A stretch of DNA of 30,137 nucleotides, from the NCBI RefSeq assembly GCF_003334355.1, contig NZ_QOWP01000040.1; one strand, 5' to 3'. Shown here piece by piece: positions 25,890 to 26,208 of this stretch (positions are counted from its first letter, which is position 1; each line of letters begins with the position of its first letter). The position numbers and the translations under genes are program-made. Under the pieces are notes generated by a model. That model worked only from the letters and a program-made list of their open reading frames with translations, was not told the origin of the DNA and did no database searches. This DNA is from Escherichia coli (GTDB lineage Bacteria > Pseudomonadota > Gammaproteobacteria > Enterobacterales > Enterobacteriaceae).

Positions 25890-26138
25890 AGGGTTCCTCA
25901 GCTCGCTGACAAGTCGACCCATCTGTCCATTGAGCGGACAGTTTGTGCAACACTATTTTGTTGACCGGAAAATGGAACACTTTCCGCAATGCCTGTTGCT
26001 ATCACGCTTAAACCATTTCATTGCGATTTACACAGAACGGACGTCCTGTCGCAGTATATTAAGTCGTCGATAGAAACAAGCATTGAAAGGCACAGCAGTA
26101 GTCAAACAGTGTGAAACGCTACTGGCGCCTTACAGCGC

Positions 26139-26169
26139 AAAAAGGCTGGTGACTAAAAAGTCACCAGCC
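26139..26169 (-). terminator. rplL-rpoB intergenic attenuator (partial intrinsic terminator)
   Basis: Minus-strand RNA forms GGCUGGUGACU-UUUU-AGUCACCAGCC (11-bp stem) followed by UUUUU; about 40 nt downstream of the rplL stop. Confidence 0.85.
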
Positions 26170-26208
26170 ATCAGCCTGGTTTCTCAGGCTGCAACCGGAA
26201 GGGTTGGC

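Follow-up and report, generated by a model that had tools for sequence, protein, structure and literature searches.

The hairpin and the run of five U residues that follow the rplL gene in this Escherichia coli sequence can be identified with high confidence as tL7, the leaky intrinsic (Rho-independent) terminator within the rplKAJL-rpoBC transcription unit. The element is real, conserved and already known, under the name tL7 as well as under the Rfam name P26, and it sets the ratio of ribosomal-protein to RNA-polymerase transcription. The papers cited for this rplL-rpoB intercistronic attenuator are those of Barry, Squires & Squires (1980) and Morgan & Hayward (1987).

Gene context and structure of the terminator

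The window, i.e., the whole 30,137-nt stretch of DNA that was analysed, contains the nusG-rplKAJL-rpoBC locus of E. coli on its minus strand, and the features described below lie on this strand unless indicated otherwise. The genes rplJ (27138-26641) and rpoC (21784-17561) were recognised by NCBIfam equivalog models far over their cut-offs, rplL, encoding ribosomal protein L7/L12 (26209-26574, with the stop codon TAA at 26211-26209), by TIGR00855 (160 bits against a cut-off of 84.4), and rpoB, encoding the RNA polymerase beta subunit (21861-25889), by TIGR02013 (1991 bits) and by its RefSeq annotation. An identical E. coli locus is annotated in RefSeq as nusG-rplK-rplA-rplJ-rplL-rpoB, in agreement with these gene calls. 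No tRNA genes were found in the window.

The co-oriented rplL and rpoB genes are separated by a spacer of 319 nt (26208-25890), which 5419 of 5426 complete E. coli genomes share with at least 99% identity. The strain behind the window is not K-12, and the spacer of the window differs from that of K-12 MG1655 in a single base out of 319, at 26179 (C here, T in K-12). This base is the last one in the loop of the hairpin H2 considered below, so that no base pair is affected. The window element and tL7 of K-12 belong to the same species and lie between the same genes; they are one and the same element, one loop base apart and without any substantive difference.

The terminator stem-loop, H3, occupies 26144-26169 and consists of the arms GGCTGGTGACT/AGTCACCAGCC, which form 11 bp, including 7 G-C pairs, around a TTTT loop. 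The T-run TTTTT (U5 in the RNA, 26139-26143) begins at the base directly past the stem. The fold of H3 has an energy of -21.7 kcal/mol (z = -6.97), which was equalled by none of 200 dinucleotide shuffles; Morita et al. 2017 (PMC5558911) gave -20.4 kcal/mol for the hairpin of the rplL terminator. Together with the T-run, H3 heads the list given by the consensus terminator scan of positions 20000-30137, and among the independent sites of this kind (a hairpin with a T-run) that our own detector found on the minus strand of the 30-kb window it is second in strength. The strongest minus-strand terminator-like site by energy, a hairpin with a T-run at 28776-28808 (-), is located between nusG and rplK. 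A strong hairpin with a U-tract at 26139-26169 of the minus strand, just past rplL, had been noticed in the preliminary description of this DNA; its coordinates proved to be exactly those of H3 with the T-run, and the terminator prediction suggested there as a check did return a terminator. The locus is of value as a positive control, since a reading made from the sequence alone was right both in coordinates and in interpretation.

The 3′ end of the RNA formed in vivo was mapped in K-12 by Term-seq. Supplementary file 1 of Adams et al. 2021 (PMC7815308) gives a 3′ end at NC_000913.3 4180995(+), with scores of 61408.7 and 23672.2 in the two entries shown and with GCCTGAGAAATCAGGCTGATGGCTGGTGACTTTTTAGTCACCAGCCTTTTTGCGCTGTAAG printed as the flank; the nearby 3′ ends within rplJ, rplL and rpoB have scores of 750-1850 in the same file. 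The MG1655 record has the end of rplL at 4180925 and the start of rpoB at 4181245, which makes the 3′ end the 70th base past the rplL stop. When mapped from K-12 to the window it falls at 26139, the last U of the U-run, and the Term-seq check proposed in the preliminary description thereby gave a strong end at the expected site. Termination and exonucleolytic trimming back to a stable hairpin are not separable on the basis of a Term-seq 3′ end alone.

The features of an intrinsic terminator, namely a G+C-rich stem-loop, an adjoining U-run (a short one, of 5 U) and an in vivo 3′ end inside this run, are all found here. Canonical intrinsic terminators such as the rrnB terminator are similar in that a G+C-rich hairpin directly precedes the U-run in which the RNA 3′ end is located. 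However, tL7 has only 5 U, followed by GCGCU, and unlike the canonical terminators it is placed inside a transcription unit, upstream of essential genes, with a reported efficiency of 70-80% and not a near-complete one. A reading of the opposite strand was rejected: the P26 model scores 25.9 bits on the plus strand, below threshold, and recognises there only the palindromic stem without a T-run. The plus-strand open reading frames at the terminator region are antisense to rplL.

Two further hairpins precede H3. H2, CAGCCTG-AGAAAC-CAGGCTG (26172-26191, 7 bp), ends 2 nt upstream of the terminator stem, and H2 and H3 together are located 17-65 nt past the rplL stop codon. The energy of H2 is -11.2 kcal/mol (z = -4.61), and none of 200 shuffles was as good. 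A second, smaller hairpin AGCCTG-AGAAAC-CAGGCT had been described earlier between rplL and H3 at about 26172-26189; it is indeed present, but these coordinates are off by one base, the core being at 26190-26173. H1, CAACC-CTTCC-GGTTG (26192-26206), is a weak 5-bp hairpin 3-17 nt past the rplL stop, the third one in addition to the two noticed earlier; its energy is -4.6 kcal/mol (z = -2.1), 7 of 200 shuffles were as good, and its pair probability drops to 0.02-0.17 once the rplL coding sequence joins the fold. H1 is probably within reach of the terminating ribosome. From the order of synthesis, H2 would form ahead of the 5′ arm of H3 and would block the pairing of ACCAG with that arm. H1 and H2 may prevent the terminator arm from entering into competing pairings and hold it away from the terminating ribosome, and they may also protect or stabilise the 3′ end of the rplL mRNA.

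Conservation of the element and the Rfam family P26

The distribution of the element was studied by a scan of genome contigs anchored only on the C-terminus of rplL and its stop codon, and because of this anchor the hairpins themselves could not bias the search for loci. At least 120 loci from many phyla were obtained; the phylogenetic sample is an arbitrary one, and Pseudomonas aeruginosa itself is absent from it. When a hairpin with a T-run was defined by dG <= -10 within 160 nt, it was found, among the matches listed, downstream of rplL in 88 of 117 cases, in the coding sequence of rplL in 0 of 114, in dinucleotide shuffles in 8 of 117 and in the antisense of the same stretch in 34 of 117. 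In 90 of the 120 listed loci a co-oriented rpoB begins no more than 1.5 kb past rplL, the median spacer being about 188 nt.

The stem GGCTGGTG..CACCrGCC-TTTT is recognisable as the same element in 16 gammaproteobacterial lineages, and the TTTT of the U-run is invariant in all of them. Across these lineages 98.8% of the cells of the H3 alignment are paired and 4 of the 11 pairs are changed on both sides. The covariation score was reached by 0 of 500 shuffles, and pairing falls to 15-54% when the H3 partner is slid by 1-3 columns.

For the neighbouring hairpins H1 and H2, MAFFT gave no usable alignment from one order to another, and for this reason both were judged not from alignment columns but by folding each sequence separately and comparing the result with shuffles. 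In at least 14 of the 16 lineages these folds place a hairpin 0-5 nt upstream of H3, with unrelated stem sequences (AGCCTG/CAGGCT, GCCA/TGGC, GGCC/GGCC and GAATTCG/CGAATTC are examples), and the stretch from the rplL stop to H3 has z < -2 in 14 of 16. Hairpins of differing sequence at the position of H1 were found in Klebsiella, Pectobacterium, Rheinheimera and Bowmanella, i.e., in Enterobacterales and Alteromonadales.

RF00630 (P26) is one of only two Rfam families over threshold in the whole window. Its match, at 26143-26204, covers the model completely (1-66 of 66) with 71.1 bits against a gathering score of 36 and an E-value of about 1e-13; it begins 5 nt past the rplL stop, between rplL and rpoB, and the two consensus helices of P26 are H2 and H3. 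The alignment to E. coli contains two non-canonical marks and a 4-nt deletion, and, in comparison with the model, H2 of E. coli is without the inner 2-bp extension of the first helix. P26 exceeds the gathering threshold in six further genomes, including the loci of Klebsiella, Vibrio, Salinivibrio, Aliidiomarina and Bowmanella, and in Klebsiella and Vibrio sonorensis a check showed the match to lie directly past the rplL stop. Of 14 gammaproteobacterial loci that carry the GGCTGGTG stem, eight are below the gathering score. In Rfam the family bears the label 'Gene; Pseudomonas sRNA P26', which does not place it among the cis-regulatory elements. For P. aeruginosa, Qi et al. 2014 (PMC4324240) described P26 as a partial terminator that lies immediately downstream of rplL, and they named tL7 as its E. 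coli homologue. The 'P26 sRNA' of Rfam and tL7 are the same thing, and the 'Gene/sRNA' label says less than is documented on the cis role of the element in partial termination.

Partial termination and alternative interpretations

The description of the site as the classic rplL-rpoB partial terminator, made earlier without any searches, is borne out by the predicted terminator with its Term-seq end, by the P26 match and by the literature, the word 'partial' coming from the literature only. A passage in Qi et al. 2014 (PMC4324240) presents tL7 as a partial rho-independent terminator of 80% efficiency at which rifampicin raises read-through (Morgan & Hayward 1987), and in rpoB mutants of P. aeruginosa read-through of P26 explains 70% of the variation in rpoB transcript level (PMC4324240). 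Termination of about 70% was given for the attenuator in bioRxiv 10.1101/2021.11.05.467461, and the rplL-rpoB attenuator was also described in PMC4670729 and PMC6181997. In the publications of the Morita/Aiba group the rplL terminator was employed as a strong or stable second Rho-independent terminator module (PMC5558911, PMC9765468). The published efficiencies disagree, 70% standing against 80% and both against the words 'strong' or 'stable' of the Morita/Aiba papers. PMC3616713 deals with the L10 leader and not with the rplL-rpoB spacer, and PMC5371410 and PMC12360218 contain nothing specific to the terminator site between these genes.

In the proposed mechanism, RNA polymerase that has started at the rplK and rplJ promoters would transcribe rplL, the 11-bp G+C-rich hairpin would form in the nascent RNA with the weak rU:dA hybrid of the U-run in the active site, and most complexes would release the RNA at the last U (26139), giving abundant rplJL and rplKAJL mRNAs. 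A minority, reported as about 20-30%, would continue into the structured 249-nt leader and rpoBC, and as an outcome the rate of beta/beta′ transcription would be lower than that of L7/L12. The leak is plausibly caused by the short U-run, with its five residues followed by GCGCU. Because the efficiency of tL7 would depend on the polymerase itself, a polymerase impaired by rifampicin or by rpoB mutations would read through more, and through this greater read-through the synthesis of RNA polymerase would be under homeostatic feedback. It is from the literature that both the influence of the polymerase state on read-through and the feedback on beta/beta′ synthesis are taken (PMC4324240, PMC6181997). 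Such a feedback would raise beta/beta′ synthesis when the polymerase is impaired, and it bears on the costs of rifampicin resistance (PMC4324240).

Control by an alternative fold was considered and rejected. H3 keeps a pair probability of at least 0.95 when the fold takes in 0, 60 or 150 nt of the RNA upstream of it, and the only alternative pairing for its 5′ arm is the 5-bp ACCAG/CTGGT, which is far weaker than H2 or H3. A switch-type attenuator with an antiterminator is ruled out by these values, and, as no fold competes with H3, tL7 is an intrinsic terminator with a constitutive leak, unlike the switches of the trp or riboswitch type. It resembles the leader-peptide and riboswitch attenuators (trp, his, TPP) in that a terminator upstream of the regulated genes sets the number of polymerases that continue. 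In contrast to them, tL7 has no antiterminator fold, leader open reading frame or aptamer match, and it is controlled by the properties of the polymerase and by factors, not by a ligand or the position of a ribosome.

Other interpretations concern the fate of the RNA that ends at this site. L7/L12 is needed at four copies per ribosome, and the three hairpins could mainly be a 3′ stabiliser of the rplL mRNA, a barrier to 3′-5′ exonucleases that helps L7/L12 synthesis to exceed that of L10, with termination being secondary. The presence of three consecutive hairpins, where one is enough for termination, and the retention of H2 beside H3 in nearly all lineages speak for this explanation, which we regard as a real possibility although not a likely one; it leaves unexplained the invariant U-run and the 3′ end exactly at the last U, and, being compatible with the role of a terminator, it is an added function more than a rival. 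Considerably less probable is an independent small-RNA gene, in which P26 would be an RNA of about 60-70 nt, transcribed from a promoter of its own or released from the 3′ UTR of rplL by cleavage, and acting in trans, and the terminator would be merely the end of this sRNA. The filing of RF00630 as a gene, 'Pseudomonas sRNA P26', the conservation of H2 and H3 as a unit and the strong 3′ end are all in keeping with such an RNA, and an extended -10 promoter-like site was found inside rplL at 26334-26307 (9/12). However, there is no promoter-like site between the rplL stop and H2, for Qi et al. P26 is a partial terminator, not an RNA that acts in trans (PMC4324240), and the U-run has 5 U against the seven or more T residues given for terminators of Hfq-binding sRNAs in a passage of PMC5558911. 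Since the element starts 3 nt past a highly transcribed gene, a short RNA from this place would be explained most simply as the tail end of rplL mRNA, and the sRNA would in any case be compatible with the terminator role. The site inside rplL, CTGAAA-16-TAGAAT with TG (26307-26334, minus strand), lies about 100 nt upstream of the stop; an independent short RNA that ends at tL7 would have no other candidate start.

It is hardly credible that the element is a complete terminator at the end of an rplKAJL operon, with rpoBC transcribed from its own promoter in the spacer. The hairpin is certainly very stable and was used in experiments as a 'stable' second terminator (PMC5558911, PMC9765468), and there is a 9/12 promoter-like match at 25912-25885. 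This match is the sole promoter-like site between the terminator and rpoB; it overlaps the rpoB start codon ATG and for this reason could not supply the ribosome-binding site of rpoB. Promoter-like sites are not enriched in the region, 10 being found against 7.0 +/- 2.7 in shuffles. Moreover, co-transcription with 70-80% termination was reported (PMC4670729, PMC4324240, bioRxiv 10.1101/2021.11.05.467461), RNAs spanning rplL and rpoB are already present in the literature, and a Northern blot in PMC9765468 marks transcripts that run past the second terminator, which comes from rplL. A leaky terminator inside one transcription unit, tL7, remains the preferred reading.

The rpoB leader and other sites in the window

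The spacer beyond the terminator is strongly structured: its minimum free energy (MFE) folds have z = -3.6 when taken alone and -6.6 together with the hairpins. A conserved box GCGCTGTAAGG stands directly after TTTTT and, with the hairpin H4, occupies 26087-26138; both are contained in read-through transcripts only. H4 in full extends over 26131-26087, its core stem is formed by 26124-26119 with 26101-26096, and its conserved loop is TTTCACACTGTTTGA. The sequence TTTTTGCGCTGTA, which directly follows the U-run and leads into H4, is invariant in the 7-sequence alignment. According to the folds of individual species, the arms of H4 are wholly different among E. coli, Klebsiella, Pectobacterium, Vibrio and Salinivibrio, yet complementary in each, and the loop of 15-17 nt is conserved as TTTCaCaCTGTTTga. 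In the core, all 6 of 6 pairs are changed on both sides, 92.5% of the cells are paired and the slid controls collapse; these values come from 7 sequences only, and the counts are effectively those of six genera because Bowmanella is out of register in the alignment. No Rfam family matches at H4 with E<=1.

In our opinion, the conserved and covarying H4 after the T-run is mildly new, and what novelty remains in this well-known locus belongs to H2 and H4 as conserved flanking modules. Both H2, directly before the terminator, and H4, directly after it, are kept by covariation from Enterobacterales to Vibrionales and Alteromonadales. It may even be imagined, though this seems unlikely, that the terminator is the centre of a larger conserved module, in which the invariant box GCGCUGUAGG and the conserved loop UUUCaCaCUGUUUga of H4 would be sites of binding or pausing that allow a protein (RNA polymerase, NusA or a ribosomal protein) to tune read-through or the fate of the rpoB leader. 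If true, the H2/H4 module would be a sensor, not described before, by which beta/beta′ synthesis is controlled autogenously.

Farther downstream, in the rpoB leader, the MFE folds of the spacer contain a long hairpin with imperfect pairing, about 100 nt in length (25987-26085). A passage in PMC13001810, citing Barry et al. 1980, states that RNase III cleaves the rplJL-rpoBC mRNA, and the hairpin at 26085-25987 is a candidate for this processing site.

A natural insertion is known at the release site itself. The strain E. coli 82.0311 (NZ_CP122454.1) carries a 712-bp IS200C precisely at the junction of the T-run and GCGCTG (positions 2292-3003 of the locus L002 in our collection), with its tnpA co-directional with rplL and rpoB and with its own CCCCCAGC/GCTGGGGG hairpin at the left end. 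As rpoBC is essential, it must be expressed in this strain either across IS200C or from it, and the presence of the insertion at this point in one strain means that the immediate downstream context is not strictly essential.

Several other sites of the window are worthy of mention. At the region of the rplJ leader (27156-27397, minus strand), only sub-threshold Rfam matches were obtained (Arrc08 with 42 bits against 219 and V_AS5 with 27.8 against 96), and none of the L10-leader families of Rfam reaches threshold there. The palindrome AAAAACCCGCCGAAGCGGGTTTTT at 17516-17539, just beyond the stop codon of rpoC, is flanked by an A-run and a T-run and for this reason looks like a bidirectional terminator. 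A TPP riboswitch (RF00059, 74.8 bits) is located at 11774-11874 on the plus strand, opposite to that of rpoBC.
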